From the NCBI GenBank assembly GCA_947492575.1, contig CANLNK010000002.1:127304-159303 (forward strand): a stretch of 32,000 bases of DNA, written 5' to 3'. The notes below the pieces were generated by a model that was not told the DNA's origin, ran no database searches, and saw nothing but the letters and a program-made list of their open reading frames with translations. Below are positions 268 to 27,684 of the stretch, one piece after another. Numbering within the stretch: the first letter of the stretch is position 1; each line of letters opens with the position of its first letter. The stretch is from an uncultured Thalassotalea sp. (GTDB taxonomy: Bacteria > Pseudomonadota > Gammaproteobacteria > Enterobacterales > Alteromonadaceae). A program made the position numbers and the translations under genes.

Positions 268-933
268 CTATAAATGAAATCGTGCCATTTTCTGGTTTCT
301 TGGATGTTCCCAATCACCTATGATGTCAACTTTAAAACCAACACATGAAGCCATGTACTTAATTTCTTCAATCGAATAGTGAAATGGATCTTTATCAAAA
401 TATGTTTTTTTCTTTCCTGGATGCTGCACAATTACCTCAGTACAAACGGAAGTTGGAGCTTCAAAGAAAGTACTAAAATAACTTCCTCCAGGTTGTAAGC
501 ACTGCTTAGCATTTTTGAGGCATCTCAGTATCATATTCATCGGTAGATGCGTAAATAAAGAAACAGATAGCATGTAGTTAAATTGCTCTTCAAACAAACT
601 AAACTCAAAGCAATCGTTTACTAGTAAAGAGGGAAGTTTGTGCGTTAAACTTGCACTATCCAACTCTAGCTTTCCTGCATTAATTAATGAAGCATTAATA
701 TCTATTCCAAAGTAGTTTCCTTGTTCCAAGTAATCAACAAAATGGAGCCCACCTCTTAAACATCCGCATGCAATATCTAATAACTTATGGTTTGGTTGCA
801 AACCTTGTTTAATAAGGAATTCTATTTGCAATTGACCGATTTCATCCCACATTCCACCAACAAAATTACGATGCTCGTTTTCCTTGATTTCCGAACTTGA
901 TAATTGACGATGGTATGCATTTATATTTTTCAT
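268..933 (-). CDS. class I SAM-dependent methyltransferase (substrate unknown, probably glycan tailoring)
   Basis: 221-aa ORF with an ATG start. It has the SAM-binding motif I pattern LLDIACGCLRGG and a downstream LQPGGSYF segment, both typical of Methyltransf_11/12-like enzymes. It lies at the distal end of the glycan locus. Confidence 0.8.
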   Translation of the reverse strand: MKNINAYHRQLSSSEIKENEHRNFVGGMWDEIGQLQIEFLIKQGLQPNHKLLDIACGCLRGGLHFVDYLEQGNYFGIDINASLINAGKLELDSASLTHKLPSLLVNDCFEFSLFEEQFNYMLSVSLFTHLPMNMILRCLKNAKQCLQPGGSYFSTFFEAPTSVCTEVIVQHPGKKKTYFDKDPFHYSIEEIKYMASCVGFKVDIIGDWEHPRNQKMARFHL

Positions 934-1060
934 GAAATTCCTTAAAAATAAGCCACTCTATACGCTTCAATAAAAATGGTTGTTAGTTCAAGAGGCTAAA
1001 TACTTAGTTCTTCAGAGAGTACAAATAAATTCGTTAATTGACCGCAAGCTAAGACATTAT

Positions 1061-1690
1061 TTAAGCGTTTTTCAAGTATTGTGGATCACCATTTTTAATG
1101 ATACTTACAATTTCTTGAGTCTTAGCCGCTGATAACTCAACCCCACAAAATTTAGCTATTTCACGTACAGTATATTCTGGGTGAGTCAACGACTTTTCAT
1201 AAGAAAGCGACAATATAGGACATTCTAGCTCAGACATTACACTCAACATTCTTTTATAAGCATTAATAGAATTGTGTAATGACTCTTCGATATCAGCCTC
1301 AACAGAAATATTGTTTCGTAGCGATATTGCTAGAATATCTCTATACAATATGATCACGCGCGGGTTTCTCATCGAATGAATAACGTTCTTGATTGAGCCT
1401 CTCAACGCGGGGCATTTGTAACCCCACTTATCCCATTGAGCATTCCGTTTTTCACAGATATTAGAAAAACCTTCAAAATCTTTACTTTTTAGTAACAACT
1501 GGATTTCTTTATCTTCGTTAGTCCTAGGGGTTAGCTTTTCCCCCATCGGAATATCTAAAGCTGACAAAATTCGAGACGCCATAGTAGTACCAGACCTACC
1601 TAAACCAGTCACAGCTATAGTACTTTGCTTTTGACAAACGTCCTCATTCTTTAACCAAACTCCATTATTAATCAATTTTTTCACCTTCAA
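1061..1690 (-). CDS. sulfotransferase family protein (PAPS-dependent type)
   Basis: 209-aa ORF. VTGLGRSGTTMASRIL matches the phosphosulfate-binding loop pattern (G-x-x-R-S-G-T-T) of sulfotransferases. The track start is TTG and there is no in-frame ATG before this loop, so the exact start is uncertain (an AAGGTG patch precedes an internal TTG). Confidence 0.7.
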   Translation of the reverse strand: MKVKKLINNGVWLKNEDVCQKQSTIAVTGLGRSGTTMASRILSALDIPMGEKLTPRTNEDKEIQLLLKSKDFEGFSNICEKRNAQWDKWGYKCPALRGSIKNVIHSMRNPRVIILYRDILAISLRNNISVEADIEESLHNSINAYKRMLSVMSELECPILSLSYEKSLTHPEYTVREIAKFCGVELSAAKTQEIVSIIKNGDPQYLKNA

Positions 1691-1739
1691 CTTTGAAATT
1701 TATACAATTAAGCTCTACTACTGCCAATAATCAAGGCAC

Positions 1740-2819
1740 CTATCTGTCTAAAAGCTCTTCATCACACTCGACTTCAACTAACTCTCTAGCCGCCTTAATT
1801 GCGCCATCTTCTATATCAATTTCAACCTCACCTTTTGAGCATATTTCATGGTGATTTAGATCTAAAGTAGTCGCGTGCTTCAAAAATAATCTCATCACGT
1901 GACTAACCCCCTCTTCGACTACATTACGTAGATCATCTGCATAGTAAGACCCACGATTGTAGTTTCCAGTAATAATTTCATATGACGGAAAATAATGAAT
2001 ATTTGAATTTTTCTTGGATACAGTATCAGCTGCTACGCGTAAAACCGACTTAGAATAGGTTGTAGCACATAACACATGCGTTTCTTGCTCTGCTGTTGCC
2101 ATCAAAGGAACTGGAGAAACCGTAAGAATAATTTTAGCGTTAGGATTTACATCTAACAGTAAAATATTAAATTCATTTAAATCGTCAATTACATCCGTGA
2201 CTGTCTGGTTATAAAATTCAAATTTAGCTTCATCGAACTCCCCACCTTCTACACCAGGGCATAAAGGAAATACCGCACCATCCCTTTTATCTTTCCAACA
2301 CTCTGTTAAGCCCAGTGTAAATACAAACACATCTAAATTCATAAACATTTCTTTCACGAAACGTAAATGCTGCTGCTGTTCAAAGTACAGTTCTTCTTCA
2401 GAAATAAACCCACCTGGTTGAATATTAGGTCTGAAAGGGTCTCTAAAGCTGCCATCGCTGTGCAACCAAACTTGTTCACAAGGTTTAAACATACTAAACG
2501 CTCGTTTAAATAGTTGGAGCAATTGTCTTGATGTATACAAATTACCGTATCTAGCTGAAAAAGTCCCATAGTTAAACTCTTTCTGAACTGCTGCTGGCAA
2601 TAGAGGGTGTGCTTCTTCTGCAACGTAATAATTAAAACCTGAACTTTGTAAATGACGGGCAATGTGCTGGGCAAAGCAACTGCCTGCTGTTGCTACTTTT
2701 GTTTCCTTTTCTATCTGTAAACCAAAGCATCCAACTGGATCTACTTGCTCAGTCTGTAAAGAGGAAATCGATTTGCGCCAAAAGGCTTTGGGCGGCAACT
2801 TTTTATACGGGTGGCTCAT
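1740..2819 (-). CDS. GSCFA-family protein (SGNH-related, function unknown)
   Basis: 359-aa ORF with an ATG start. It contains the family's eponymous motif (TAGSCFAQHIARHL) near the N-terminus. The nested 106-aa ORF at 2354..2674 is an alternative-frame shadow. Confidence 0.7.
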   Translation of the reverse strand: MSHPYKKLPPKAFWRKSISSLQTEQVDPVGCFGLQIEKETKVATAGSCFAQHIARHLQSSGFNYYVAEEAHPLLPAAVQKEFNYGTFSARYGNLYTSRQLLQLFKRAFSMFKPCEQVWLHSDGSFRDPFRPNIQPGGFISEEELYFEQQQHLRFVKEMFMNLDVFVFTLGLTECWKDKRDGAVFPLCPGVEGGEFDEAKFEFYNQTVTDVIDDLNEFNILLLDVNPNAKIILTVSPVPLMATAEQETHVLCATTYSKSVLRVAADTVSKKNSNIHYFPSYEIITGNYNRGSYYADDLRNVVEEGVSHVMRLFLKHATTLDLNHHEICSKGEVEIDIEDGAIKAARELVEVECDEELLDR

Positions 2820-2824
2820 AGTGC

Positions 2825-3538
2825 TTACCTTAAACCTCTAATTTTTGATATTACTCGATGACCATAAAGGTGGTTAGCGTGTGTGGCATCTTTGTTATAG
2901 AACTCTTGCCTCAAAAAGCCCTTATCTGTAATTGTTTCCGTAGGTGGGTTTACAAAAGTCACCCCCCACTCTTCACAAAGCTCTTCTAATGCTTCCATCT
3001 CTGCTCGCCAAATGTTCAATCTTGTAAGAGGAGCGTTTAATGTCTGCTCCGTAACTATATTGTTTCTATATTTACTTGTTTGATCAGCTATAAACCCATT
3101 ACATTCCTTAGGTGGAGGGGTAGCTAAGTGATACAGTCGGCATTTGACAGCTTTTCGAATGGATGAAATGGTTTTGTTTTTTTTCATCTGCTCTTTAAAA
3201 ATCTGTTTCATAGCTGCGTAAGGAAGCACTAAAGCCTCGTTATCAGGAAGTATTTGGCTTTGTCTAGAAAATAAAGTGTAAGGCATACTATGTCTTACCA
3301 ATCCCAATATATTATGACCTGTCCCCAATATAGAGATTACAACCATGTCATTTGAGTTCAATTGAGAAGCTTTTTTCTGGAAATCTTCTAACGATAAATT
3401 ACCAGTCGTTTTTCCTTTTTTTTCAACTTTAATCCAACGTATTTCAATTGGACTTTCATCACAATAATTATCATCCTCAAGCGCTAGCTTCAAAGACTTA
3501 GTATGGCTATCACCAAAAATTAATATTTTTGTACCCAT
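2825..3538 (-). CDS. SGNH/GDSL-type hydrolase or acyl-esterase
   Basis: 237-aa ORF whose ATG overlaps the upstream stop (TAATG). It has N-terminal KILIFGDSHTKS (block I G-D-S) and C-terminal DATHAN (block V D-x-x-H). Confidence 0.6.
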   Translation of the reverse strand: MGTKILIFGDSHTKSLKLALEDDNYCDESPIEIRWIKVEKKGKTTGNLSLEDFQKKASQLNSNDMVVISILGTGHNILGLVRHSMPYTLFSRQSQILPDNEALVLPYAAMKQIFKEQMKKNKTISSIRKAVKCRLYHLATPPPKECNGFIADQTSKYRNNIVTEQTLNAPLTRLNIWRAEMEALEELCEEWGVTFVNPPTETITDKGFLRQEFYNKDATHANHLYGHRVISKIRGLR

Positions 3539-4677
3539 TATTGCCCCATCAACCCTTTTTCTTTAAGTTCGGCGTTTGCTTTATCTAACTTGTCCTCTGG
3601 CAACGGCTGGGTATTTACCCAATCAACGAATCTAGTCAACCCTTGCATTAAAGACACCTGAGGCTCATAACCCAATAAGTTTCTTAGTTTATTAATATCC
3701 GCTCGATTATGACGAATATCGCCGAGACGGTATTGCCCAGTCACTTTTATATCTGGATCTTTACCAAACGCCTCTGTAAGCTTAGAAGCAATATCAACGA
3801 CTGTGGTCAACTCACCCGTCCCCACATTAATCACTGTATTTGGCGCATTTTCTGCGGTTAAGGCCGCTAAGAAGGCATTGGCGACATCTTCAACATGCAC
3901 AAAGTCTCTCGTTTCTTCGCCATCCTCAAAAATAGGAAGTTGTAAGTCACGTCGAATTCGAGTTGAAAAGATAGACAAAATACCCGTATATGGATTATTT
4001 AGAGACTGCCCTTCACCATACACGTTTTGCAGTCTCAGAATACCGTAACCTATACCGAGAGACTCACAACAAATAGAAATTAGATCTTCTTGCGCATATT
4101 TTGTTGATGCGTAAATTGAAGCTGGCTGAATATTGTCACTTTCTCTAGTTGGCACGGATGTTAGCGTATGGCCACACACATTGCAGGGTGCTGTCCACTG
4201 TTGGTTGGCTAACTGTTCTGGTTTGCGAGCAGTCGGATAGTGTCTAACTTCATCGTTACACACTTCACAAATATACGCACCCTCGCCGTATACAGAACGA
4301 CTTGAAGCTAACAAAACTCTCTTAAGCTTCAGCTTTTTATTGGTTATGATATCTAGTATTAGGGCGGTCGCTTGAGTATTAACTTCATTGTACTTTTCAA
4401 TTTCATACATTGATTGACCAGTACCTGTTTCAGCCGCTAAATGAATAAGACTGTCACATTCAGACAAGCATGATTCAAGAACTCCTCTATCTGTCACACT
4501 TCCATGAACAAAGTTAATACCACACTCTTCAACCCAGCTTGGCGTTTTGGGAGTGTCACCATGTATCTGTGGGGAAAGGTTATCTAATATTGTGACACTA
4601 TAATTATTTGCTACTAATAAAGGGCACAAGTGGCTACCAATAAAACCTGCACCACCCGTAACTAATATTCTATTCAT
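3538..4677 (-). CDS. NAD-dependent sugar epimerase/dehydratase (extended SDR) with a Cys4 insertion
   Basis: 379-aa ORF. It has the Rossmann motif VTGGAGFIGSHL and the catalytic Y-x-x-x-K in IYASTKYAQE. An insertion carries C137-x2-C140 and C165-x2-C168. The exact reaction cannot be assigned. Confidence 0.85.
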   Translation of the reverse strand: MNRILVTGGAGFIGSHLCPLLVANNYSVTILDNLSPQIHGDTPKTPSWVEECGINFVHGSVTDRGVLESCLSECDSLIHLAAETGTGQSMYEIEKYNEVNTQATALILDIITNKKLKLKRVLLASSRSVYGEGAYICEVCNDEVRHYPTARKPEQLANQQWTAPCNVCGHTLTSVPTRESDNIQPASIYASTKYAQEDLISICCESLGIGYGILRLQNVYGEGQSLNNPYTGILSIFSTRIRRDLQLPIFEDGEETRDFVHVEDVANAFLAALTAENAPNTVINVGTGELTTVVDIASKLTEAFGKDPDIKVTGQYRLGDIRHNRADINKLRNLLGYEPQVSLMQGLTRFVDWVNTQPLPEDKLDKANAELKEKGLMGQ

Positions 4678-4744: not shown

Positions 4745-6958
4745 TTACTCATCTATCCCAACTCTATAGTTATCTGCTTTATTGAGCATACCTAAAACTT
4801 GTTGTTCTAGCTTTTTTAGAGAATATGTATGCTGCAATTTCATTTGCGCATTTTTAACCATATCAAATCGCGCTTTAGGGTTTTCAATTAAGTGACTTAA
4901 ATGTTCAAGCCACTCTTGCGTAGAAGAGGCTAATAGACCACAGTCGTCACTGCAACATTCGTCATAAACGGTGCCTTTAGATGCCACTACTGCCGCACCT
5001 ACCGATGAATACTCGACCCACTTAGTATTGGCTTTCATCATATTGAAATGGATAGGGGTAAGCGGGCAAATTCCGATGTCCCAGTTGCGCTTGCTAAACT
5101 CCTGTAAGAAATTATTGTAATTCTTTACGGGGGGACTCACGTTAACACGAGTACTGTATACCTTCAGCTTTTCAGGTACTGGAATAGAGCCAAAAAACTC
5201 AACTTCTACGTCAGGATACTTCGCTAAAATATCTATTAGCGCTGGCAGTACGACATCTAAGTTATGTGCGTGATCAGCGCTGGCCATGTAACCAATTTTT
5301 TGTGTCGGCTTGTCTTCTGCTAGCTTAATTAAACTGCCTGAACAATAAATGTCTCCATTTTCAACCGGAGACTTTACACCTAATTCAGTTAAACGGGCTT
5401 TTAACTTAACGGTTGAGCAATAAACGAGATCGGTATTATTCAACAGATAATACACAGAGCTAAGCCTATCTTGCTGATTATGGTGTCTGTATTTTTTCTC
5501 GCCTATGTCTTTAGGAATAGTCAATAAATCATCATCAATATGATAAATAGTGGTAACATTATTTCTCTTCGCCCAATTAACCACGTTAAAATACTGAGGT
5601 CCGCTGTAACGGCAAAAGACTATGGTAGTCGGCTGAAACGAATTGAGTCGTCTTTCAAGCCAATATGTGACGTCAGCCTCTTCCAAGTTGACACCAAATT
5701 GCTCTCTTAAATGTACTTCTGAAATAAATTCAAAGTCGATGTCATTGTTACTTTTCAAGTTAGCCAAAGGCTTAATAAAGCTCAGCTGTAAAGTGGGCAC
5801 ATAATCGTTAGCAATAAAGACCACTTTGGGTTTAATGGCCGCCCCTTTTGATAAGTCGGTTTGTAAACCCTGAACATTGGTGTTGTTTTGAAAAGAAGAA
5901 AACAGTCGCACAAACCCACTATGGACTTGGCTAGCTTGATGAGGCATATCTAATTCAGATAAGAATTCATTTTGCCTCTCTATAAAGTACTCAGGCTCTT
6001 TATTTGCTCTGTCAGCAAAGGCTAACCAGTCCTCTACTGAGCTTATCGCAGTTAACCCTGAGTAATTATCTGCATCCATCAAACTACCACTATCGCGCCA
6101 TACTGCCGTGGGTATACCTGCCAATACCATATCGATTAATACTGAAGATGGTGCTGAAATACCATAACTATATTGACGCAAATCCAGCTTATACATGGGC
6201 TGATTATTAAGTTCAACATTATTGGGCAACATGACGTTATTTTTCACTACATATTGGCCGCCAGGGTGTGGACGTAGCGTGACTTGTTGTCCGTTACTCT
6301 CCTGTCGTCTGCAAAAGTCAGTAAAAGTATCAATAAATGACATCTTAAAGTCACCCGATGCACTTAGCCTAACCGAGTGTAAATTCTCGCAAACTAAGCC
6401 TCGCCCAAGCTTATTGACTGGTTGAACATTGGGTATTTGCAATACTTGAGATGGACCAGTTACCAACAGCTTATGTCGCTGAGACGGCAATAGAGAACTC
6501 ATATGTTTAGTGTCGTACCAGCCACATACTATATCTGCCCCAAAGCTAACATTAGTACCATGCGCCTTGTCGTGTTCACGGCTTTGTCGGAATCCAACAC
6601 ATTCAAAACCGTGTTGCAATGTCACGCGGGTAAAGTTTTTCGGAGCACACAAAAATAACTGATGAGTTGGAGAATGCGCACCTAAGTTTGATTCACTACC
6701 AGCAATCAAAAAGCCATGTTTATTGTTCAATACTTGCACAGCTTGGTAGCTCTTTTCAAATCGGTACACTAAGCTCTGGGTTTGTTGTGCTATTTGATAA
6801 ATTTCTCTCAGCCAGAGGCCTGATTTATCACGTTCAACAAATTTAGCCGTTACAAGAAATTCAGTATTAAAACCTAAGTCCTTAGACGCCAAAAAGACTA
6901 AAGGTCTAAGAACATTCACATCCTGTAATAAATTAATAATAAAAATAGCCGATTTCAT
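4745..6958 (-). CDS. two-domain putative glycosyl/phosphoglycosyl transferase (both halves GT-B-like)
   Basis: 737-aa ORF. The N-terminal half has TLQHGFECVGF (aa 112-122) and LLVTGPSQ (aa 164-171). By eye these resemble the WHG ... G-Y-P-R pair of TagF-type transferases. The C-terminal half (from about aa 375) has a GT1/GT4-like layout (IGYMASADHAHNLDVVLPALIDILAKYPDVEVEFFG ... KWVEYSSVGAAVVAS). This is a fold-level call only. Confidence 0.5.
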   Translation of the reverse strand: MKSAIFIINLLQDVNVLRPLVFLASKDLGFNTEFLVTAKFVERDKSGLWLREIYQIAQQTQSLVYRFEKSYQAVQVLNNKHGFLIAGSESNLGAHSPTHQLFLCAPKNFTRVTLQHGFECVGFRQSREHDKAHGTNVSFGADIVCGWYDTKHMSSLLPSQRHKLLVTGPSQVLQIPNVQPVNKLGRGLVCENLHSVRLSASGDFKMSFIDTFTDFCRRQESNGQQVTLRPHPGGQYVVKNNVMLPNNVELNNQPMYKLDLRQYSYGISAPSSVLIDMVLAGIPTAVWRDSGSLMDADNYSGLTAISSVEDWLAFADRANKEPEYFIERQNEFLSELDMPHQASQVHSGFVRLFSSFQNNTNVQGLQTDLSKGAAIKPKVVFIANDYVPTLQLSFIKPLANLKSNNDIDFEFISEVHLREQFGVNLEEADVTYWLERRLNSFQPTTIVFCRYSGPQYFNVVNWAKRNNVTTIYHIDDDLLTIPKDIGEKKYRHHNQQDRLSSVYYLLNNTDLVYCSTVKLKARLTELGVKSPVENGDIYCSGSLIKLAEDKPTQKIGYMASADHAHNLDVVLPALIDILAKYPDVEVEFFGSIPVPEKLKVYSTRVNVSPPVKNYNNFLQEFSKRNWDIGICPLTPIHFNMMKANTKWVEYSSVGAAVVASKGTVYDECCSDDCGLLASSTQEWLEHLSHLIENPKARFDMVKNAQMKLQHTYSLKKLEQQVLGMLNKADNYRVGIDE

Positions 6959-6974
6959 TAATTTCTCTTTGATT

Positions 6975-8471
6975 TTAATTCTTTATCCAAAAGGCCGATT
7001 TAGATTGCTCAGACAAAATGACATTCATTTCAGGAAAATAATCGGTCAAGTAACAATTAAGCCAATGCATTATCTGGTTGTAGCAAGACAGCTGCACAAG
7101 CTTAGTAGAGTCAGTCCAGCCACTAAAATGAATAAATGAGTGCTCAATTCTAGTAAGGGGTGGCAACGCGTAATAGACACGATGAATTTTTTTACCAACC
7201 TTCACTGCTCTCGACCGAACTGAATCTGATAGCTTTAATAAAGTTTTTTCGCATACATGGCATTCAAATTGCTGTTTTTCCTCTGACCACTCAAAACGAA
7301 TATCAAAATTAAGCTTGTGTCGACAAAACGGACTAGCAACAGACAAGCCCCCTAACTTTTGAACTAACTTGTGGTTTGCTGGTGACGAGTCCATTCCATG
7401 TACCAGGATCGTACTTTGGCTATTCATTTTGTTATTTTCAGCTAGGGTTACTTTATTCAATTGCTCGATAAAGCTCTCAGCTTCTTGCTCTATACTTGCA
7501 AACTGGTTTAGCACATTAATCAGGCCCTCAACTGTGTCTGCTGACATATTGAAATCAGCATTGTATACATCAGCCGACCACTCATGTGGGGTGCGGTATA
7601 TATAGTCATTAAATGGTTGATAAAGAGGAAAGCCCAATGACAATACTTGGCAACCATGCGACAGTGCTGTAACGACTCTATTAAGCGACTTTACTATACT
7701 AAAATTTTGCGCATTGACTGGCAGTAAGCACAATAAAGACTGCTTTAACAGCTCTTTTTCTTTTGTTTCAGACCACTCTTCAATAGTAAATTCAAAAGGC
7801 AGTAACCTAAGTAACGCCAGATTAGCTTCAGTTAACGCTCTTTGGTTTGTCAAAATAGTGAAATCTAACTGGTAACCGTCTACTGCTAATTGATTTAACT
7901 GATTACCTTGAGCTACTAGGTCTTGCAGACCTACTTCAAAATTAGGATTGTCCCCCATACCAAACCAACACGCTTTGATAACTCGAGTGTGATTCAATAC
8001 CGATAGTTTCGCATTTAGCAAATGGGTGATACTTTCTTTATCGATCTCACTTGCCGGATCATTCAATACATGCACAGTGGTTTTCCCTGCATATATTTTG
8101 GCCACTTCGGCCATCCCTTCGGTAGAACACAAAAACATATCGGTATATAGAGATATTTGCTTTAGCCAAAGTCTCAACCGCGCTAGGCGACTATCTTGAC
8201 TCTGAGTGAAATAATCGTCAAATAAGTCAACAATTACCTTTTTGTGTCCATGGAGAGCTTGCGCAATTAAATGGGCCCTGGCGTCATAACATTTACTGAT
8301 GATATAGGCATCGTAATTAGTAAGCTCAGCACGAGAGGTGAACTCTTCAATCGGCTTTAATTCAATCACTACGCCTTTATCATACAAATATTCAGCCAAA
8401 CGCTGGTAACGTATTCTTACCCCAGCCTGCTTAAGGTAAGCAGTTGTAGGCACTATGACACACATTCTCAT
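6975..8471 (-). CDS. hypothetical protein, possibly a GT-B-like transferase paralogous to the neighbour's C-terminal half
   Basis: 498-aa ORF whose ATG overlaps the stop of the 1386-aa gene (TAATG). It has no canonical motif. By eye, KKVIVDLFDDYF...LYTDMFLCSTEGM parallels TTIYHIDDDLL...NNTDLVYCSTVKL in the 737-aa protein. Confidence 0.35.
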   Translation of the reverse strand: MRMCVIVPTTAYLKQAGVRIRYQRLAEYLYDKGVVIELKPIEEFTSRAELTNYDAYIISKCYDARAHLIAQALHGHKKVIVDLFDDYFTQSQDSRLARLRLWLKQISLYTDMFLCSTEGMAEVAKIYAGKTTVHVLNDPASEIDKESITHLLNAKLSVLNHTRVIKACWFGMGDNPNFEVGLQDLVAQGNQLNQLAVDGYQLDFTILTNQRALTEANLALLRLLPFEFTIEEWSETKEKELLKQSLLCLLPVNAQNFSIVKSLNRVVTALSHGCQVLSLGFPLYQPFNDYIYRTPHEWSADVYNADFNMSADTVEGLINVLNQFASIEQEAESFIEQLNKVTLAENNKMNSQSTILVHGMDSSPANHKLVQKLGGLSVASPFCRHKLNFDIRFEWSEEKQQFECHVCEKTLLKLSDSVRSRAVKVGKKIHRVYYALPPLTRIEHSFIHFSGWTDSTKLVQLSCYNQIMHWLNCYLTDYFPEMNVILSEQSKSAFWIKN

Positions 8472-11400
8472 TAAAAAGCACTCCTTGTAATCAATGAACG
8501 CTCTTGAATCAGGTCTAAATATTCGTAGTCATTAACTAGAGTTGTTATTTGTTTTTCAAAAGCATCATCACAAATAGGGTTTCCATACCATCCGACTCTG
8601 ACGCTGTTTATCTGCATATTGAACCTACCACCTTGCAGCGCGTTTAAGTTTGCCAGGATATGTCCCGAAAATTGCTCTCCACTTGAATCAAGCCAATCAG
8701 TTATTTCATCTATCTTATTTGATACGTACAAGCGAGGATCAACACTAAGGACAGGCAACTCCTGCATATTCAATAAGTTATCTTTGTGGAGTTCATTAAC
8801 AATAGGAATAACAGCTTCATCGCCTTGCTGACTGCCTAAGTAAATGGCTGCACAATCTAAAAAGGCCTGAGGTTTCTTTTTAACTCTCTTCTCATAAACT
8901 AGCGGGCAACTTACCTGGAAAACTTCATCCCGAGACGCAGAATTACAAAGCATAGCCAATGTATTTGGTGCGATGAATAACGTACCTGCTTGTACGTATA
9001 CCCAGTATATCTCGTTCGAATTGCTTCTAGCGGTAACTGTAAGGTCAATAAATACGTCGTCAAAGTAGTTTTCCAATAGCCCTTTTGCGTTTATCTTTTT
9101 CAATTTACTCACGTCACCTTCAGTTCCGACTACAATAGTCAGTGCTGACAGTTTTTTAGCAGAATGAAACTGAGAAGAAAACGATGTAAGTGTTGCCATT
9201 AATGCGTCGAATGTTGCATTTTTAGCATTAACAACCACGCTAACTAATTTGCCTGATAAATCATGCTGTTCTGTTAATCCGTCTGGATGCTGAGGCATTA
9301 ATAACTCAGCCTCGCTCACTTGATTATTGAGTGGTTTAAAAACCACCTCATCGACCGCGTATTTCGTCGCCACAGGTAAAGTTCTACTCTCGCTATAGGC
9401 ATTGGTAGCAGCACTTAAACGAATGGGCGTTGTGATAATACTGTGTCTTTTGAAGCTATGTGGAGCAACTACAGAATATACACATTTTGTAAACTGATTT
9501 AACTCTTTTACCTTGACTTGAACAATATCAATCAACAAAGATAGGCTAGGAAAATGCTTGCCACATATGACATAGTCGGGTTCAGCGCTAGCTTCTTCAT
9601 TACTTTTACTTTCTTGTGGAGCTCGTGTTTTTAATAACTGCATTAAGTAGTTAGCACTGTGTTGCCTTAGCCCATTTTTGTGATCGACATTATCAATTCC
9701 ACAATAAACAATGCCTAAAAGGTGTTTTGACCAAGCTAAAAATGAATGAGTAAAAAGCAGCTCATTACCATTACAGCCACTAATATCAACATCAACCACC
9801 CTAGTGCCGCAGCCAGAACTGTGTCGCAACTTGCAAACAAAACCAAAACTTCGCTCAACAAATTCCGCCTTGTCTTGATAATTTAAGGTGTTGTGCACCC
9901 CTCCTACGAGCATACTCGGAAAAGGAAGCATAGCCGCATTGTATATTTGACCTTGAGCATCACTTTCTACTAGCAGTAAAGGCATGAAATCATCAAGCAA
10001 TGTTACTGATATCGCTTCAAGTGAATCTGCGGCAAACGAAAACGTTTTTACTAATGCAAGACTCGGCTTTTCATTATTGGCGTTTAACTGTCCTTGATAC
10101 ACTCTCACTGTGTGTTCGGGATTAATAGTGGCAATCTTTTGCCAATAAAATGTGAAAGTTGCGGTACCGGTTCGTTCAATCAAGCTGAATTTTTTCAAGC
10201 AACTCAGTAATGCAGCTTTACTCCCTTCATCATCACTGGAAGGTGGCAGCTCTACAACTTTGCTACACCAAGTTACTGAAGCGGGGCTTGCTCCTATCAA
10301 GCTGGCAAAGCATTGCAAACTAGTAAGAGTATTACTTTCAACCTCATCAAGACTACCTAAAACGGTGCCTAATACTTCTACTGGTTTATTGATAGATGAA
10401 TCGAATGCTTTGGTCTGTTGTTTCTTTATTTTAGTCTCAACGATTACTTTTTGAGAATAAGGCTCAGGAGCAACATCCTCTAAGGATAGATCAGCAGGGA
10501 CTGTAACATTGGTTTTTGATTGTTTTATCTTGCGACTTTCTGAACGACCGTATAGCTCGTAGTGGAGTAGTGCATTTACCCCAGCGCTTTGCACGTCTTC
10601 ATTATGTTCAAGATAATATGCAGTATTGAATTTAGGGCTAGGATCTCTCTTATCCTCATTACCATACTTTAAGTAGTGTTCAAGCGCCGCGATCCCAGCT
10701 TTTTGGACATCAGAGTAATTTTGTACATACCAAGACTCATCAAAAAAGTCACTATTTTTTATTATTTCTAATTGTGCTCGAGAAAGACCACTTGGGCGAT
10801 TAAGTAATCGTGCAGCAATACGACCAGGCACAGCCAATAATGATTGACGCCATTTACTCATAATTTGCTTGCCCTCGGATAGCTTTGGCAATATGGTCGA
10901 TATAACACGCTTTTTTGGGACCTCTCCATGGTTCAAATTCATACTTTGGTTTAATTTACTAAACTGTGAAGACTGTTCCGACTCAATATTGGTAAGCTTT
11001 ATTGACGCATCAAGAAACTGCTTTTGCAAGGCACTATTGCCTTCCGCTATTGCATCAAGCAACTGCTTTTCTAGAGTAGTCTTATCTTCCACCATTGCGT
11101 CAACCTGACTATGTACCTCTGTTAGTTGCTGTTGCAAGGCTGCGTTTTCTTCAAGCAGGGTATCAAGCTGTTGACCGAAAGTAGCTTCCATTTTCATTTG
11201 TGTATTAAAAACATCATCGAAAGATTCCTGCAAACTGGTTAACCGGTTTTGAACGCTTTCTTTATCTTTCAATAATTCAATATATGACACTTCAATTTTC
11301 AGGGCTTCTTCCAACCTAGCCTCGTTCTCTAAAAGGCGGCTTTCGAGTGCGACTTTTTGTTCTCTTATTACGTTCAGTGCATCTTTTTCGCCATCTAGTA

Positions 11401-12631
11401 ACTGCTCTAAATCAGATTTACTTGTTGCTTCAGCTGATAACGCTTGCTTCAATGCTCCAATTTCTCTGTCTTTATTACCAATTTCACTGTTCAGCTTGTC
11501 GATTAAGTGTTGACTTTGGCTAGATTCACTATCCAGTTTCTCATGCAATGAGTGTTGATGTTGAACTACATCTTTACGCACTGCCTCCATGGTCTCCAGT
11601 GCTGTTGACATGCTTGCAGCCATATCTGATTGAGCTTTTAAATTAGTACTCAACAGCTCATTTTGCGAAGTCAACTCAGAAACTTTTAATTCAAAATCTT
11701 TCTCTTTTTCTTTGAAAGAATGTATCTTTTTTCCTTTGTTATTTGACTCTACTAAAAGACCATGAATGAAGAGCCCTACATCCTTCATCAGGAAGTCAAA
11801 CTTCCCCCTAATCTCATCTAGAGTGTCTTGTTCATGTTCAGTGGCCAGCTGCTCCTTCTTTGCCAGAGCTGACAAGGTTTCATGCATCATCTTGATTACA
11901 GAAGTCACTGCTGAACTAGCCTCAACCCAATCACCTTCAACATTATGTCTATGGTCTGAAGAAATAATATTTGTCGCTTGACCAATAGCTGTAGTCAGCT
12001 CATTAGGTAATTCAATGGAAGAAAACAAAAGATTGTGAATTTTTTCCATGACCTTATTAGGCCGTTCTATTAGCTGAGCGTAACTAACGAATACCCTATC
12101 TCTCCCACGAGAAAACAACTCAGCATCAAGTACATATTGTCCCCACAACAATAAGCCATGCAGCTGCGGAAAGTTATTTCTTTTAGTAAGAGAATTTGCA
12201 ACTTCCAATGGGTGTCGGATAGGTAGGACGATTTTGGTTTCAATATCGAGTTGATCTAATGCCTGTAACCAAATTGGCAACAACATACAAAGCCGAGGGT
12301 CTTTAAGAATAAAATGCTTAGAATTCCCGTACTCTGATTCAATCAGATCAATTAATGCTCTGACGTCTTCTTCAGTAAAACGCTCAAAAGCCTCATAATT
12401 GCCAACCGATGAAATGTCATGCCAATTGGATTGTATTTTGCTAAATAAATAGTCATTAAAACGGTTAACTTTGACCGACTCCCAGTGGCCCGTTGGGTTG
12501 CTTTCATTCTCTCCTAACAGAGAATCTGGCAGTTCTAACCCTAAAAAGCTTAACGCTTTGGTCAATACCGAGGTGCCTGAACGGTGCATACCGCAAACAA
12601 TTACACAAAGTCTCTTTTGCTCTTGACTCAT
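8471..12631 (-). CDS. 1386-aa multidomain protein: N-terminal sulfotransferase-like domain, long coiled coil, tandem DV..AG..HY..YG motifs, large unassigned C-terminal region (last ~260 aa possibly GT-A-like)
   Basis: Uninterrupted ORF with an ATG start. At aa 9-150, CVIVCGMHRSGTSVLTKALSFLGL, NPTGHWES, ILKDPRLCMLLPIW and IRHPLEVANSL form the pattern I associate with bacterial sulfotransferase-family domains. Residues ~300-570 contain no proline and are rich in E/K/Q/L, so a coiled coil is likely. Residues 628-700 hold two tandem copies of a ~36-aa motif. At aa ~1128-1175, KLVSVVVNAKNATFDALMATLTSFSSQ resembles the start of a GT2 domain (weak). Confidence 0.6.
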   Translation of the reverse strand: MSQEQKRLCVIVCGMHRSGTSVLTKALSFLGLELPDSLLGENESNPTGHWESVKVNRFNDYLFSKIQSNWHDISSVGNYEAFERFTEEDVRALIDLIESEYGNSKHFILKDPRLCMLLPIWLQALDQLDIETKIVLPIRHPLEVANSLTKRNNFPQLHGLLLWGQYVLDAELFSRGRDRVFVSYAQLIERPNKVMEKIHNLLFSSIELPNELTTAIGQATNIISSDHRHNVEGDWVEASSAVTSVIKMMHETLSALAKKEQLATEHEQDTLDEIRGKFDFLMKDVGLFIHGLLVESNNKGKKIHSFKEKEKDFELKVSELTSQNELLSTNLKAQSDMAASMSTALETMEAVRKDVVQHQHSLHEKLDSESSQSQHLIDKLNSEIGNKDREIGALKQALSAEATSKSDLEQLLDGEKDALNVIREQKVALESRLLENEARLEEALKIEVSYIELLKDKESVQNRLTSLQESFDDVFNTQMKMEATFGQQLDTLLEENAALQQQLTEVHSQVDAMVEDKTTLEKQLLDAIAEGNSALQKQFLDASIKLTNIESEQSSQFSKLNQSMNLNHGEVPKKRVISTILPKLSEGKQIMSKWRQSLLAVPGRIAARLLNRPSGLSRAQLEIIKNSDFFDESWYVQNYSDVQKAGIAALEHYLKYGNEDKRDPSPKFNTAYYLEHNEDVQSAGVNALLHYELYGRSESRKIKQSKTNVTVPADLSLEDVAPEPYSQKVIVETKIKKQQTKAFDSSINKPVEVLGTVLGSLDEVESNTLTSLQCFASLIGASPASVTWCSKVVELPPSSDDEGSKAALLSCLKKFSLIERTGTATFTFYWQKIATINPEHTVRVYQGQLNANNEKPSLALVKTFSFAADSLEAISVTLLDDFMPLLLVESDAQGQIYNAAMLPFPSMLVGGVHNTLNYQDKAEFVERSFGFVCKLRHSSGCGTRVVDVDISGCNGNELLFTHSFLAWSKHLLGIVYCGIDNVDHKNGLRQHSANYLMQLLKTRAPQESKSNEEASAEPDYVICGKHFPSLSLLIDIVQVKVKELNQFTKCVYSVVAPHSFKRHSIITTPIRLSAATNAYSESRTLPVATKYAVDEVVFKPLNNQVSEAELLMPQHPDGLTEQHDLSGKLVSVVVNAKNATFDALMATLTSFSSQFHSAKKLSALTIVVGTEGDVSKLKKINAKGLLENYFDDVFIDLTVTARSNSNEIYWVYVQAGTLFIAPNTLAMLCNSASRDEVFQVSCPLVYEKRVKKKPQAFLDCAAIYLGSQQGDEAVIPIVNELHKDNLLNMQELPVLSVDPRLYVSNKIDEITDWLDSSGEQFSGHILANLNALQGGRFNMQINSVRVGWYGNPICDDAFEKQITTLVNDYEYLDLIQERSLITRSAF

Positions 12632-12727
12632 TTTACAACCATAGTTAACAAAATTGATTACTGCTTATTCTTTAAAATACAAGTAGAAAAAATCATGCCC
12701 TGAATAATTCAAGTAGGCATAGTTATC

Positions 12728-13807
12728 CTAAATTAAGCTCGTCCACCAAGGTTTCTGGTTCAAATACCAAGATATCGTCTTATTAATACCAGTTTCAAAT
12801 GACTCTAGTGGTTCATAACCAAGTTCATTATTAGTTTTGGTAGCGTCTATGGCATAACGACGGTCGTGACCTGCTCGGTCTTGAACAAAAGTGATCAATT
12901 CCTCACTAGATCCATTGGCCGCTTTGACCGCAGCTGGGTACTGAGTTTTTAAATCTGGGTTGGACTCAAACTGCTCATTCATTAATTTGCAAACAACTTT
13001 TACAATATCGATGTTTGCCCACTCATTGTGACCACCAATGTTGTAGTTTTCTCCTATTAGCCCTTTATTCAGAACAAGCTCAATACCTCTAGCATGATCT
13101 TCTACATATAGCCAATCGCGAATTTGTTGGCCATCACCATAAATGGGCAGAGGCTTGTCATGCAAAATATTCGTAATAATGAGCGGAATTAACTTTTCAG
13201 GAAAATGGTACGGTCCATAATTATTTGAACAATTAGACGTCGTCACTTCCAATCCATAGGTGTGGTGATACGCACGAACTAGGTGATCGCTTGCTGCTTT
13301 ACTTGCAGAGTATGGCGAGTTAGGCGCATAAGCAGTTTCTTCAGTAAATGCAGGATCATCTTTTTCTAATGTACCGTAAACCTCATCCGTAGAAACATGA
13401 TGAAAACGATGAGGTAAAGGACTAAGGCCTTTATCTTTGGGCAAATCAATCCAAACTTTTTTGGCTGCTTTTAAGAGCGAGTAGGTACCAATGATGTTGG
13501 TTTCGATGAATGCATCTGGCCCTGTTATGGAGCGATCTACATGAGATTCAGCCGCGAAATGCACAATCGTATTAAGTGATTTTTCCGATAAAAGCTTTTC
13601 TACTAAATTAGTATCACAAATATCACCGTGAACAAACTCGAAATTAGCATTGTTTTCTATCGGCGCTAAATTATCTCTATTTCCAGCATAAGTCAGTGCA
13701 TCTACCACTACCACAGTATCTTGTGGGTTATTTTCCAACCAATAGTGCACAAAATTCGCACCGATAAAGCCGGCACCACCGGTAACTAATAGTTTTCTAT
13801 TTTCCAT
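12728..13807 (-). CDS. rmlB: dTDP-glucose 4,6-dehydratase
   Basis: 359 aa. It has LVTGGAGFIGANFVHYW, the catalytic YSASKAASDHLVRAYHHTYGL, and the conserved C-terminal RRYAIDATK. It sits in an rmlACDB run. Confidence 0.95.
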   Translation of the reverse strand: MENRKLLVTGGAGFIGANFVHYWLENNPQDTVVVVDALTYAGNRDNLAPIENNANFEFVHGDICDTNLVEKLLSEKSLNTIVHFAAESHVDRSITGPDAFIETNIIGTYSLLKAAKKVWIDLPKDKGLSPLPHRFHHVSTDEVYGTLEKDDPAFTEETAYAPNSPYSASKAASDHLVRAYHHTYGLEVTTSNCSNNYGPYHFPEKLIPLIITNILHDKPLPIYGDGQQIRDWLYVEDHARGIELVLNKGLIGENYNIGGHNEWANIDIVKVVCKLMNEQFESNPDLKTQYPAAVKAANGSSEELITFVQDRAGHDRRYAIDATKTNNELGYEPLESFETGINKTISWYLNQKPWWTSLI

Positions 13808-13825
13808 GATTATTTAATTAATTGT

Positions 13826-14710
13826 TTATTCGTTAATGATACGCTGATACGACGATAACATCGCTTCAAGTTGTGACTCCCAGTGCACTGATTGAGCCCC
13901 TAAATAGCTCTCGGTTGGCTGTTTATCCATTACACTGAAATGCGGTCTAGCTGCAGGCGTTGGGTATGCTGAGCTAGAAATCGGCTTGAGCGGAATTGCT
14001 TTAGCTAATATCCCCTGCTTAAGGGCCACCTTTTGGATACTTACGGCGAAATCATACCAGCTGGCTACACCTGCATCACTCCAATGAAATAATTTTCCAT
14101 CTATTTTTGATGCATTTATTACAAGAGTCCAAATTACCTGTGCTAAACCAGCTGCCCATGTAGGCGTTCCAATTTGATCACTAACTACTCCTAACTCTTC
14201 TTTTTCTTGCATTAAACGGAGCATAGTTTTAACAAAATTATTGCCATGCTCTGAATAAACCCAAGACGTGCGAATGATAATGTGATCATTCGGCAATATT
14301 GCTTGAACTTCTAGCTCACCTGCAAGTTTACTTTTACCATAAACACTTACGGGATCAGTTTCGTCTGATGGCAAATAAGGCTTAAAATGTTTGCCGTTAA
14401 ATACGAAGTCTGTTGATATATGAATCAGCTTCGCTTTAACATCAGCACAAGCATTGGCTAAGTATTGACAACCATATTGATTAACTTGGTGCACTAATCC
14501 TACTTCTGACTCAGCTTTATCTACCGCAGTATATGCAGCAGCATTAATGACAACATCTGGCTTTTCCCGAGCTATAACCAGAGCAACTTGCACCGCATCT
14601 TTGATATCTAGTTCATTTGAACCAAATGCTACGACCTCAACGTCACTAGGAATAGACTGCAATAACTCATAGCCCAATTGCCCATTTTTTCCGGTAATGA
14701 GTACTTTCAT
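13826..14710 (-). CDS. rmlD: dTDP-4-dehydrorhamnose reductase
   Basis: 294 aa. It has MKVLITGKNGQLG, YGKSKLAGE (Y-x-x-x-K) and the typical RmlD length, and lies between rmlC and rmlB. Confidence 0.93.
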   Translation of the reverse strand: MKVLITGKNGQLGYELLQSIPSDVEVVAFGSNELDIKDAVQVALVIAREKPDVVINAAAYTAVDKAESEVGLVHQVNQYGCQYLANACADVKAKLIHISTDFVFNGKHFKPYLPSDETDPVSVYGKSKLAGELEVQAILPNDHIIIRTSWVYSEHGNNFVKTMLRLMQEKEELGVVSDQIGTPTWAAGLAQVIWTLVINASKIDGKLFHWSDAGVASWYDFAVSIQKVALKQGILAKAIPLKPISSSAYPTPAARPHFSVMDKQPTESYLGAQSVHWESQLEAMLSSYQRIINE

Positions 14711-14712
14711 AT

Positions 14713-15258
14713 CTAAAATTTAGGTGCCTGATTAAAAAACAATCCGCCTGCATCTTTTGCAGATAAACTTGGCTCTTTTTCATCAACTAAAGGCCAATCT
14801 ATTGCGAGTGTTGGATCATCCCAACGAAGAGAAACCTCAGCGTTAGGGTTGTATACATCGGTACACTTATATACAAATTCGGCCGATTCACTCGTTACAT
14901 AAAAGCCATGCGCAAAGCCTTCTGGTACCCAAAATTGCTTTTTATTCGCTGCTGAAAGGAATACACCGACCCAGTGTCCAAACGTAGGAGAGTGCTCACG
15001 CATATCTACGGCCACATCAAACACTTCTCCTTGAGTTACTCTAACCAGTTTCCCTTGCGTATTCTCTGTTTGATAATGTAAGCCTCGCAAAATACCTTGA
15101 GACGACTTGCTGTGGTTATCTTGCACAAAAACACGCACCCCACAGTTTTGGTTAAAGCTTTCTTGACGAAAAGTTTCCATGAAAAAACCACGTTCATCCC
15201 CAAATACTTGAGGTTCTAATATTTTTACATCGGGAATTGATGTTTCTACAAACAGCAT
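14713..15258 (-). CDS. rmlC: dTDP-4-dehydrorhamnose 3,5-epimerase
   Basis: 181 aa. It has FGDERGFFMETF, LRGLHYQ and GFAHGF, which are cupin-type RmlC signatures. Confidence 0.95.
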   Translation of the reverse strand: MLFVETSIPDVKILEPQVFGDERGFFMETFRQESFNQNCGVRVFVQDNHSKSSQGILRGLHYQTENTQGKLVRVTQGEVFDVAVDMREHSPTFGHWVGVFLSAANKKQFWVPEGFAHGFYVTSESAEFVYKCTDVYNPNAEVSLRWDDPTLAIDWPLVDEKEPSLSAKDAGGLFFNQAPKF

Positions 15259-15260
15259 AA

Positions 15261-16142
15261 TTAGAATATCTTCTCTTCGATTAAATTAAGTAGGTACTCG
15301 CCATAGCCACTCTTCTTTAATGGCTCAGCAATTTCGATTAGCTCTTGTGTTGTTATCCAACCATTTCGGTAAGCAATTTCTTCTGGACAATTAATCTTTA
15401 AGCCCTGTCTTTTTTCAACCGTTGCTATGAACTGGGCAGCAGCGAGTAAATCGTCATGGGTTCCCGTATCAAGCCAGGCAGTTCCTCGTCCCATAATTTC
15501 CACTTTTAACTCGCCAGCACGTAAATACTGTTCTATCACATCAGTAATTTCTAGTTCGCCACGCGGTGAAGGAGTTACATTTTTCGCATATTCTACAACA
15601 TTACTATCAAAGAAATATAAACCTGGCACTGCATATTTTGACTTCGGCTGTAATGGTTTTTCTTCAATGGAGATAGCGACTCCCTGCTCGTCAAACTCGA
15701 CTACACCATAGGCTGAAGGGTTAGCAACATGGTAACCGAAAACTGTACCACCTGACTGTTGTTGATTAGCAGCAATTAATGACTTGGTTAAGTCATGTCC
15801 ATAGAATAAGTTATCACCTAAAACTAACGCGGCGGGTTGCCCAGCAAGAAACTCTTCGGCAATAATAAAAGCTTGAGCTAAACCATCTGGCGAGGGTTGC
15901 ACTGCATACTCAATAGTAACACCAAAGTTTGTGCCGTTCCCTAATAAATCTTCAAATCGACTTAACTCTTGAGGTGTTGAAATAATAAGTACTTCTTTAA
16001 TTCCGGCCTGCATTAATGTTGCGAGCGGATAATAAATCATAGGCTTATCATAAACAGGCATCAACTGCTTACTTACCACTTTAGTTAAAGGATATAGGCG
16101 TGTACCAGAACCACCAGCCAAAATAATACCTTTACGCGACAT
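15261..16142 (-). CDS. rmlA: glucose-1-phosphate thymidylyltransferase
   Basis: 293 aa. It has [17 protein letters not shown], a YGVVEFD segment and the typical RmlA C-terminus. Its start overlaps the wzt stop by 11 nt. Confidence 0.95.
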
Positions 16143-16863
16143 TTGCTTTATCCTTTTCTTTTAATGTTTTTGTTGTGTATTGATGGTATTCAGACATTAC
16201 ATTTTCCGTTCTACCTAAAGCCATAATTTTGCCATTATTAAGCCATAAACAACGGTCACATAGTCGAGCAATTTGTTTGGCACTGTGGGAAACGAAAATG
16301 ACAGTTTGGTCACCTTTCATTTTATTTAACAAAGCTCTCTCAGCCTTTTCCTTAAAGGTTCGATCACCAACGCTTAACACTTCATCGATCAGCAAGATAT
16401 CAACATCTAATACCAAACCAGTTGTAAACCCTAGCTTGGCACGCATACCAGAAGAATATGTCTTTACTGGCTGCTCAAAAAAGTCACCAAGTTCTGAAAA
16501 AGCTTTTATTTCTTCCAATTTTTCGGTGGCATCAGCCTTTGAGTAACCATTTAGCATACAACTAATAAGCGCATTATCTCGACCCGTTAATTGGTTATTA
16601 AACCCTAAGCCAAGAGCCAAAAGTGAACGAGTAACATCTCCGAGCCACTCAATGGAACCGGAATCCGGAATTAACACTCCTGCAAGTACTTTTAATAGGG
16701 TTGACTTTCCTGAGCCATTATTCCCAAGTACTCCAAAAATCTCGCCTTTACTAATGGTAAACGAGACATTATCTAAAGCATTAAACTTGAACCGTTTAAA
16801 AAGCCCAGTTCTTACTGAGTATGACAAGCCAACATCTTGCAAACTGACTACAGTGTGACTCAT
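16132..16863 (-). CDS. wzt: polysaccharide/O-antigen ABC exporter ATP-binding protein (nucleotide-binding domain only, no C-terminal carbohydrate-binding extension)
   Basis: 243 aa. It has Walker [10 protein letters not shown], the signature [11 protein letters not shown], and Walker [13 protein letters not shown]. Its ATG overlaps the wzm stop (TAATG). Confidence 0.9.
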
Positions 16864-17654
16864 TAGAGTAATTTCCTTGTTAAGTAATTACTATTCTTAG
16901 TTAACAAAAAAGTACCAAGTATAATAGCCAGAAGCGCCCAACAAGTTATTGATAGCATATATTTAAACTCAAGAACGCCCTGCCACATAAGTACTTCTCG
17001 ATATCCCTGAATTAGCGCAGCTAAGGGGTTTAGTAAGAGCAACATATCTTTTAAGTTAGGGTCTTGTATTAAGTTAACATCCCAAAAAATACCGGAAGTA
17101 AACATAAGGCCCAACATAAAAAGCTGTATTACCATACGAAAGTCTTGCGCTATTGTGACGAAAACAGAAAAGAACGCCGCCACCCCAATAGTCAATAAAT
17201 ATTGTAAAAGGATAATAGGTATGAGATTAAGCCAATGAAATGAGGCGGAAAAGCCATTTACTATTAATACGACAAACAATACGACAAAAGCTATTTGTTG
17301 CTTATAAAAGGCCTCTTGACAATTAACAAGAGGAAACATCGCCTTGGGCATATCCCGCTGCATTAGCAATCCCTTATTTTCGATGAGGCTATTTGCCCCC
17401 GAAGTAACAGCTTTTGAAAACCACAAAAACGAGATTTTACCTACCATCAAAAATGTTAGAAAGTTTTCTCCCCCTCTATACAGTACATACTTGAATACAA
17501 AATAAAAAAGTAACACGTATAACAAGGGTTCAAGCACCCACCATAGATAGCTGAGTACTAGATTATTTGCTTGCGATTTTAATTTCATTAGAGCTTGTGT
17601 ATGAACAAGCGATATAAATCTTGAGGCATTCATGAGAACCAGAGACTCCCCCAC
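16863..17654 (-). CDS. wzm: ABC-2 type polysaccharide exporter permease
   Basis: 263-aa hydrophobic ORF with about 6 predicted TM segments, immediately upstream of and coupled to wzt. The track start is GTG. An in-frame ATG at 17633 (MNASRF...) is an alternative start. Confidence 0.8.
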   Translation of the reverse strand: MGESLVLMNASRFISLVHTQALMKLKSQANNLVLSYLWWVLEPLLYVLLFYFVFKYVLYRGGENFLTFLMVGKISFLWFSKAVTSGANSLIENKGLLMQRDMPKAMFPLVNCQEAFYKQQIAFVVLFVVLIVNGFSASFHWLNLIPIILLQYLLTIGVAAFFSVFVTIAQDFRMVIQLFMLGLMFTSGIFWDVNLIQDPNLKDMLLLLNPLAALIQGYREVLMWQGVLEFKYMLSITCWALLAIILGTFLLTKNSNYLTRKLL

Positions 17655-27672: not shown

Positions 27673-27684
27673 AAAATTCTTATA

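Follow-up and report, generated by a model that had tools for sequence, protein, structure and literature searches.

A 32,000-nucleotide stretch of DNA from an uncultured Thalassotalea sp. (assembly GCA_947492575.1, contig CANLNK010000002.1, positions 127,304 to 159,303 of the forward strand; hereafter the window) encodes a 1386-residue protein that joins an N-terminal sulfotransferase-type domain to a predicted coiled-coil stalk and to a large C-terminal module ending in a predicted glycosyltransferase (GT) fold. Its open reading frame (ORF; 8471..12631) begins with ATG, with no in-frame start further upstream, and belongs to a single gene array carried wholly by the minus strand, to which all window coordinates below refer. 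An earlier note, made from the letters alone, had placed this ORF after the exporter and rhamnose genes wzm-wzt-rmlACDB and a 96-bp gap, and every element that it listed was recovered at its coordinates. In the reading that we tentatively favor, at slightly less than an even chance, the protein is a scaffold and sulfating terminator—that is, a molecular ruler of the WbdD type with a new capping chemistry.

According to this reading, the protein would act in the cytoplasm as a membrane-peripheral organizer of surface-polysaccharide assembly dependent on an ATP-binding cassette (ABC) transporter, and the glycan produced would probably contain rhamnose and carry sulfate. The C-terminal module, in which short repeats precede a novel conserved region and a degenerate GT-A domain, would dock two transferases of 498 and 737 residues at the membrane, while a coil of ~280 residues, presumably oligomeric, would hold the sulfotransferase head away from the site of polymerization. 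The head would then reach only those chains that had grown long enough, and sulfation of their non-reducing end would stop extension. Because the exporter ATPase (Wzt) has no carbohydrate-binding module (CBM), such a cap would halt growth, and the exporter would not recognize it.

Sulfotransferase head and coiled-coil stalk

A 5'-phosphosulfate-binding loop and a 3'-phosphate-binding Arg/Ser motif are established features of sulfotransferases that depend on 3'-phosphoadenosine-5'-phosphosulfate (PAPS). Both occur in the N-terminal domain (aa 1-290, 11762..12631), which was compared with relatives in a set of 126 aligned head domains, gathered by searching the retrieved homologues locally and iteratively. 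The loop GMHRSGTS (aa 14-21, 12569..12592) is 90-99% conserved in this set; in alignment A4, G14 and H16-S21 are invariant and M15 nearly so. The 3' motif, R139-H-P-L-E-V-A-N-S147-L-T-K-R151 (12179..12217), contains four residues conserved at 99% (R139, P141, S147, and R151) and aligns in register with VRNPKDTAVS of the solved sulfotransferase 5x2b. Conservation of 83-99%, at most positions above 90%, characterizes the whole set formed by GMHRSGTS, N45, G48, W50-E51, KDPR110-113, W163, E171, R175, R179, H229, and the pattern R139-x-PLEVA-x-S147-L-x-x-R151, and the Thalassotalea protein retains every one of these family-conserved residues. By these sequence criteria the head is an intact PAPS-type sulfotransferase domain under strong selection, in line with the earlier note, which had recognized a sulfotransferase-type loop and family-like blocks downstream of it.

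Profile searches point the same way with lower scores. Pfam Sulfotransfer_3 (PF13469) aligns to aa 10-199 with an E value of 8.6e-6 and 26.6 bits, just below the gathering cut-off of 27.0 bits, and several homologues of the large protein are annotated with PF13469 or PF00685. When the A4 profile was searched against all sequences in the PDB, five of the seven chains matched, including the best, were sulfotransferases (5x2b at E 0.006, then 2zq5, 1cjm, and the sulfotransferase domain of CurM, 4gox), with weak scores throughout (E 0.006-0.5). The sub-threshold Pfam score and the weak PDB matches, together with an acceptor that is not deducible from sequence, would suit a head that acts on something other than the glycan (a lipid carrier, a primer, or a protein) or that serves as a nucleotide-binding regulator in a purely structural protein. 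We regard this as very improbable, given the conservation of both PAPS-binding motifs and of the W-E pair in a family that spans at least 585 species and shows a consistent association with glycan clusters and with GT modules.

The count of at least 585 species comes from the pattern GMHRSGTS[AV] in a genome collection, in which it is found mainly in Alpha- and Gammaproteobacteria, with some occurrences in Planctomycetota, cyanobacteria, and Actinomycetota. The head is nearly always N-terminal (median start at residue 7.5 among 124 homologues), and many of the homologues listed carry GT2, GT4, WbsX, RgpF, or WsaF modules C-terminal of the head and coil. A Wzt-like ATPase was encoded within 10 kb in 28 of the 80 best head-family genome loci. 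A scan of the genome collection with the large protein as a single query found no relative. In a collection of 15 billion proteins, the 1386-residue protein is clustered with 56-aa YacG sequences, and the homologue search accordingly returned no self-match.

The stalk (aa ~295-575, 10907..11749) is well supported as a coiled coil by composition, periodicity, and a match to a known coiled-coil arm. Residues 300-570 include no proline, tryptophan, or cysteine, and the seven amino acids L, E, S, K, Q, A, and D together make up 69% of this stretch. The windowed hydrophobic power at a period of 3.5 residues was 23.8, compared with 9.9 +/- 2.8 for shuffled sequences (z=4.9; none of 300 shuffles as high), and the same analysis detected no such signal in either of the C-terminal regions. 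Heptad scoring, a crude measure judged against shuffled sequence, gave values beyond the 95th percentile for 11 of 19 sampled 28-residue windows across aa 295-574 and beyond the 99th for six of the 11, and the coiled-coil arm of the NCBIfam SMC model was aligned to aa 298-576. The coil claimed in the earlier note for aa ~300-570 thus holds in its heptad signal, although the proline-free run is longer than was stated there and covers aa 210-571. An unbroken stalk would measure at most ~40 nm (271 residues x 0.1485 nm); the best heptad register switches at least five times along the stalk, and a continuous 40-nm rod is for this reason not assured.

Across the 124 homologues, the proline-free run that follows the head has a median length of 196 aa and ranges from 42 to 553 aa; since the length varies as that of a spacer would, the stalk appears spacer-like. 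At the base of the coil lies a basic amphipathic linker (aa 576-620, 10772..10906), delineated by charge and amphipathicity windows, of which the most positively charged in the whole protein fall at aa 572-620. The position of this linker parallels that of the membrane-binding region of WbdD and may, by analogy, mediate association with the membrane. No transmembrane segment was predicted in the 1386-aa protein, for which the highest Kyte-Doolittle average over 19 residues was 1.46.

C-terminal module and its partner genes

Beyond the linker, homologue alignments reveal two repeats of ~36 aa with the pattern FDxxWY...(N)xLxHYxxxG...R (aa 621-700, 10532..10771), which are common to approximately 80 of the 120 homologues listed and matched nothing in any of the family searches made. 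In many multi-domain homologues, the coil is separated from the catalytic modules by two to at least six repeats of the form FDxxWYLxxYPDV...NPLxHYxxxGxxEGRxP, and stand-alone relatives of these homologues carry them as well. Homologue coverage drops sharply past aa ~700. An exhaustive HMMER search with aa 705-1386 against 1.84 billion representatives returned 20 weak matches (best E 4.7e-7), and their alignment (A1) delineates a two-part module in which a conserved region is followed by a GT2-like domain.

The first part, the middle region (aa 744-1124, 9260..10402), was modeled by AlphaFold with a pLDDT of 73 and a pTM of 0.76. It had no Pfam match, and a Foldseek search of its model against the PDB returned nothing at E<0.001; for want of a significant fold match, its assignment as a second GT-A domain was rejected, and it may represent a new domain. 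In its core (aa ~840-1010, 9602-10114), where relatives carry the near-invariant motifs PFPSLxRGGxHxxE and GAxGxE...W, the Thalassotalea protein has LPFPSMLVGGVH and GxNGNE...W. A deletion of nine residues after the His of GG.H removes the xxE part of the first motif, and this protein is alone in that respect among the seven cassette orthologues described below.

The second part (aa 1125-1386, 8474..9259) adopts a predicted GT-A fold. In relatives annotated as GT2, the first strand and helix line up with the sequence LVSVVVNAKNATFDALMATLTSFSSQ of this part, and although the AlphaFold model of aa 705-1386 is of moderate quality (pLDDT 66, pTM 0.67), its top ~40 Foldseek matches in the PDB were all GT-A glycosyltransferases (E 8e-8 to 2e-6, probability 1.00), including B4GALNT1, GalNAc-T1/T2, mimivirus R699, ColGalT1, LH3, and PmHS2. 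The structural model therefore argues that the fold is real, and the resemblance of the last ~260 residues to a GT2 start, noticed in the earlier note, is upheld; a glycosyltransferase fold in the C-terminal region, on which that note had made its proposal depend, was found in the same model at E ~1e-7. The catalytic motifs, by contrast, are missing: the DxD position reads VQAG, no acidic residue occupies the later E/D-x-D position, and LFIAPNTL stands where the family has ILHDPRTL, the HD of which is kept in all six other cassette orthologues and replaced by IA in this protein alone. No Pfam family matched the C-terminus, and Pfam GT2 (PF00535 or PF13641) scored in only two of 19 members of the C-module family. 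To judge from these motifs, the GT-A domain is probably non-catalytic and hence not the polymerase.

These observations bear on the proposal of the earlier note, namely a single WbbB-like polypeptide in which one or more C-terminal GT domains polymerize the chain that the N-terminal sulfotransferase terminates. The order of head, coil, and GT-fold region beside an ABC-2 exporter, which suggested that layout, was confirmed, and the GT-A fold, the two family members recognized as GT2, and the bona fide GT2 or GT4 modules borne by many head homologues would all agree with it. The loss of the DxD, HD, and later acidic motifs, however, makes a polymerase role for the large protein unlikely, as do the deletion in the middle-region motif, the failure of Pfam to recognize a GT in this protein, the lack of homology to WbbB, and the presence directly downstream of two far better conserved candidate transferase genes. 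We therefore consider a fused terminator-polymerase improbable.

The first of these downstream genes encodes a 498-aa protein (6975..8471) and is coupled to the large ORF by a 1-nt ATG/TAA overlap, with AAGGAG 9 nt upstream of its start. It belongs to a conserved family of at least 672 homologues of ~500 aa and ~40% identity, in which dozens of polar residues are invariant (e.g., DLFDDYF and SxxKSLNR), and for which no Pfam, NCBIfam, or PDB match was found, profile search included. The second gene (4745..6958) encodes a 737-aa protein whose C-terminal half is a GT-B domain resembling GT4. No PDB sequence matched this protein, and its N-terminal half (aa 1-370) had no family match. That half is ~50% identical across phyla, and the Legionella and Polaromonas versions of the protein are ~1100 aa long.

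The three genes form a conserved triad in the order large protein with C-module, ~500-aa family member, and GT of 736-1127 aa, with gene overlaps of 1-4 nt; the ~500-aa family member always occupies the middle position (e.g., at 10001-11533 of related locus L084 and 10001-115xx of loci L085-L087). Besides the window, the triad was found in two metagenomic lineages, a Legionella pneumophila assembly, Sphingobium phenoxybenzoativorans, Polaromonas eurypsychrophila, and another NCBI genome, and near it lie genes for a GSCFA protein, a 379-aa epimerase, a ~240-aa protein of no assigned function, small sulfotransferases, and methyltransferases. Identities across these cassettes are 45-51% for the 737-aa GT, 37-41% for the 498-aa protein, 61-67% for the GSCFA protein, and 53-61% for the epimerase, while the large protein is 25-30% identical over long alignments and 32-39% within the head.

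The head and coil are present in six of the seven cassette large proteins. In the remaining case, Polaromonas eurypsychrophila, the C-module is a stand-alone protein of 753 aa encoded upstream of both partners (L087 7743-10004), and a sulfotransferase-family protein is encoded apart from it at the edge of the locus (L087 20753-21527). Because this species encodes them split, the head and the C-module can be regarded as separable units. From the gene orders compared, the C-module belongs to one unit with both partners, to which the head and stalk are an add-on. The two coupled downstream genes likely encode the transferases of the pathway, and since these are separate from, and better conserved than, the large protein, the system would correspond to a split arrangement like those of WbdD and O4 rather than to a fusion like WbbB. 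The conserved three-gene core, made up of unannotated families (the PFPS...GG.H region together with the ~500-aa family and the ~740-aa GT), is a candidate for a new glycan-polymerizing machine.

Termination or decoration, and comparison with known systems

An extended coil bearing a terminator at its distal end is the published mark of an assembly strategy that includes WbdD, WbbB, and the K. pneumoniae O4 and O7 systems, which range from fused (WbbB, O7) to split (WbdD, O4) (PMC11231755). The window shares with this class the extended coil, the modifying enzyme at the distal end of that coil, and Wzm/Wzt encoded in the same array, and lacks one class feature, the Wzt CBM that recognizes the terminal cap. 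The likeness is one of architecture: a phmmer search of the full 1386-aa protein against all PDB chains, which include WbdD and WbbB structures, gave no match at E<=1, so that the protein is not a member of either family.

WbdD (E. coli O9a and K. pneumoniae O3 and O5) offers the closest parallel to the favored layout, as its N-terminal modifying enzyme sits on an extended coil in an ABC-dependent system, and its membrane-associated C-terminal region recruits a polymerase encoded by another gene (PMC11231755). It differs in that its head is a kinase/methyltransferase rather than a sulfotransferase, in that the Wzt proteins of WbdD systems have a CBM whereas that of the window has none, and in that WbdD has neither a GT-A-like C-terminal domain nor a PFPS...GG.H region. 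WbbB (K. pneumoniae O12 and Raoultella terrigena) and ORF6 of O7 likewise combine a terminator, a coil, and a C-terminal GT fold in one polypeptide, and their genes adjoin wzm-wzt and rhamnose genes. Their heads, however, are a GT99 beta-Kdo transferase (WbbB) and a methyltransferase-kinase (O7 ORF6), their GTs are active polymerases, unlike the GT-A domain described here with its missing catalytic motifs, and the cap is recognized by a CBM on the exporter; as with WbdD, sequence homology is lacking. A GT-A fold devoid of DxD within a multidomain glycosylation enzyme has a counterpart in the second GT-A-like domain of the lysyl hydroxylase LH3, an accessory, non-catalytic domain; this is an analogy at the level of the fold alone, since LH3 is eukaryotic and unrelated in sequence.

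Several points weigh against termination by sulfate. We know of no sulfate-capped glycan, and none was found in the openly searchable literature. In the terminator systems of K. pneumoniae O3, O5, O12, O4, and O7, the CBM of Wzt reads the cap (PMC11231755). The Wzt of the window, as the earlier note correctly stated, is a 243-aa protein with no carbohydrate-binding extension: its ABC domain covers aa 30-162, and nothing of the kind follows C-terminally. Of the 28 Wzt-like ATPases found near head-family genes, 26 extend less than 40 aa past the nucleotide-binding domain and so are likewise devoid of a CBM, and the other two carry an extension of ~210 aa; cap-gated export is thus unlikely. Approximately one third of the genomic head-family members have little or no stalk and, by a crude ORF call, measure only roughly 360-450 aa, which implies that the head works also without a long coil, and the heptad register is interrupted as noted above. 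Finally, because its family is divergent, the GT-A domain is only presumed to be catalytically dead.

Alternatively, the head could be a tethered decorator that sulfates internal residues of each repeat, with the coil serving only for oligomerization or positioning and chain length being set by other means, such as the ratio of exporter to polymerase proposed for K. pneumoniae O2a, where length is set by stoichiometry and no terminator is involved (PMC11231755). Marine bacteria are known to sulfate sugars in every repeat; for example, in-chain Rha2S occurs in the ABC-dependent capsular polysaccharide (CPS) of Cobetia, whose sulfotransferase genes adjoin rml and RgpF genes (PMC11766843). These features, along with the CBM-less Wzt proteins and the existence of short head-family members with essentially no coil, favor decoration. 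The variable stalk of ~280 residues, on the other hand, is difficult to reconcile with an enzyme required to act on each repeat near the polymerase, and the cassette already has a separate small sulfotransferase, which together with the methyltransferase could carry out in-chain decoration. Moreover, all characterized enzymes borne on a coil in ABC-dependent assembly are terminators (PMC11231755). Decoration by the head is in our estimation unlikely, but an explanation to be taken seriously.

The known sulfotransferases of surface glycans differ from the head in organization. Those of the Cobetia marina CPS resemble it in being of the PAPS type and in lying inside an ABC-dependent polysaccharide cluster with rml genes (PMC11766843). 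In contrast to the Thalassotalea protein, marine and rhizobial surface-glycan sulfotransferases are small, stand-alone enzymes of internal decoration, with no coil and no fused GT-like module. Sinorhizobium LpsS is a PAPS-type sulfotransferase of this kind, acting on a rhizobial surface glycan. Proteins combining a sulfotransferase, a coiled coil, and a GT were not found described in the openly searchable literature, with prior mention in subscription papers being possible.

The earlier note had placed the protein in O-antigen synthesis, an assignment that the related loci do not establish. Several of them are of the capsule type, with genes for KpsC/S-like Capsule_synth proteins, KpsF-like SIS/CBS proteins, KdsA/KdsB-like enzymes, KpsD-/KpsE-like proteins, Poly_export proteins, and Wzz-like proteins. 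In view of this setting, the glycan of the window could be an O-antigen, a capsule, or an anchor for a surface layer (S-layer).

Coiled-coil rulers are established only for a few enterobacterial O-antigens, with methyl, phosphomethyl, or beta-Kdo caps that are read by a CBM of the exporter. If the protein described here is a ruler, a new terminating chemistry would be added to this list, termination and export gating would prove capable of being uncoupled, and an experimental handle would become available on how length is set in ABC-dependent capsules and CBM-less O-antigens. The sulfotransferase-headed version is carried by the at least 585 species counted above, mostly beside CBM-less exporters and in some cases in capsule-type loci. 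A bolder generalization, which we hold to be rather unlikely, is that the sulfotransferase-coil head defines a large class of chain-length rulers, so far undescribed, by which glycans exported through ABC transporters, Kps-like polymers included, are capped with sulfate and with no CBM checkpoint at the exporter. So extended, the class would reach Legionella, sphingomonads, and marine bacteria, and its polymerase core would be the triad, comprising two protein families and one domain without any counterpart in Pfam or the PDB.

Exporter, accessory genes, and adjoining clusters

Upstream of the large ORF, the genes run in the order Wzx-like flippase, wzm, wzt, rmlA, rmlC, rmlD, and rmlB, followed by the 96-bp gap. 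The ABC-2 exporter consists of Wzm (263 aa, 16863-17654) and its ATPase Wzt (16132-16863), and the dTDP-L-rhamnose pathway occupies 12728..16142, with rmlB at 12728-13807. The solved proteins nearest to the Wzm and Wzt of the window are TarH/TagH and Aquifex Wzt. A KpsT-like identity for Wzt was rejected, as TagH/TarH and Aquifex Wzt scored E 1e-55 to 1e-47 against E 2e-34 for 8tsi, an unnamed 234-aa chain that is presumably KpsT; by sequence similarity the exporter is of the Wzt/TagH type and not of the KpsT type. Within the gap between rmlB and the large ORF (12686-12720), the sequence ATGCC...GGCAT, which a T-run follows, has the potential to fold into a short hairpin whose loop would be 16 nt long; it might act as a weak terminator or attenuator, and was not flagged by the scan.

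Downstream of the 737-aa gene, the accessory genes of the cassette (268..4677) encode, in order, an epimerase/dehydratase of 379 aa, the 237-aa protein of no assigned function, a GSCFA protein of 359 aa, a stand-alone small sulfotransferase of 209 aa, and a methyltransferase of 221 aa. The GSCFA protein (1740-2819) is the best-conserved member of the cassette, its identity range extending from Legionella to Sphingobium.

In the interval 23915-31954 (minus strand), which adjoins the glycan clusters, the gene for an S-layer protein of the Slr4 type (Pfam Slr4, E 3e-74) lies directly downstream of a type II secretion-like set comprising a secretin, GspK/M-like proteins, and pseudopilins. In Aeromonas salmonicida, S-layer and type II secretion system genes lie within an ABC-dependent O-antigen cluster (PMC4483657), and the adjacency of the Slr4 and secretion genes to the glycan clusters of the window suggests by comparison that the glycan may serve as an S-layer anchor. 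Between these genes and wzm lies a second glycan gene set, of the Wzx type (17771-23830, minus strand), which encodes the flippase, a GT56 (WecF-like) protein, an N-formyltransferase, and a DegT aminotransferase, followed by a 591-aa TPR protein; the content of this set suggests that a formamido-dideoxyhexose is made.

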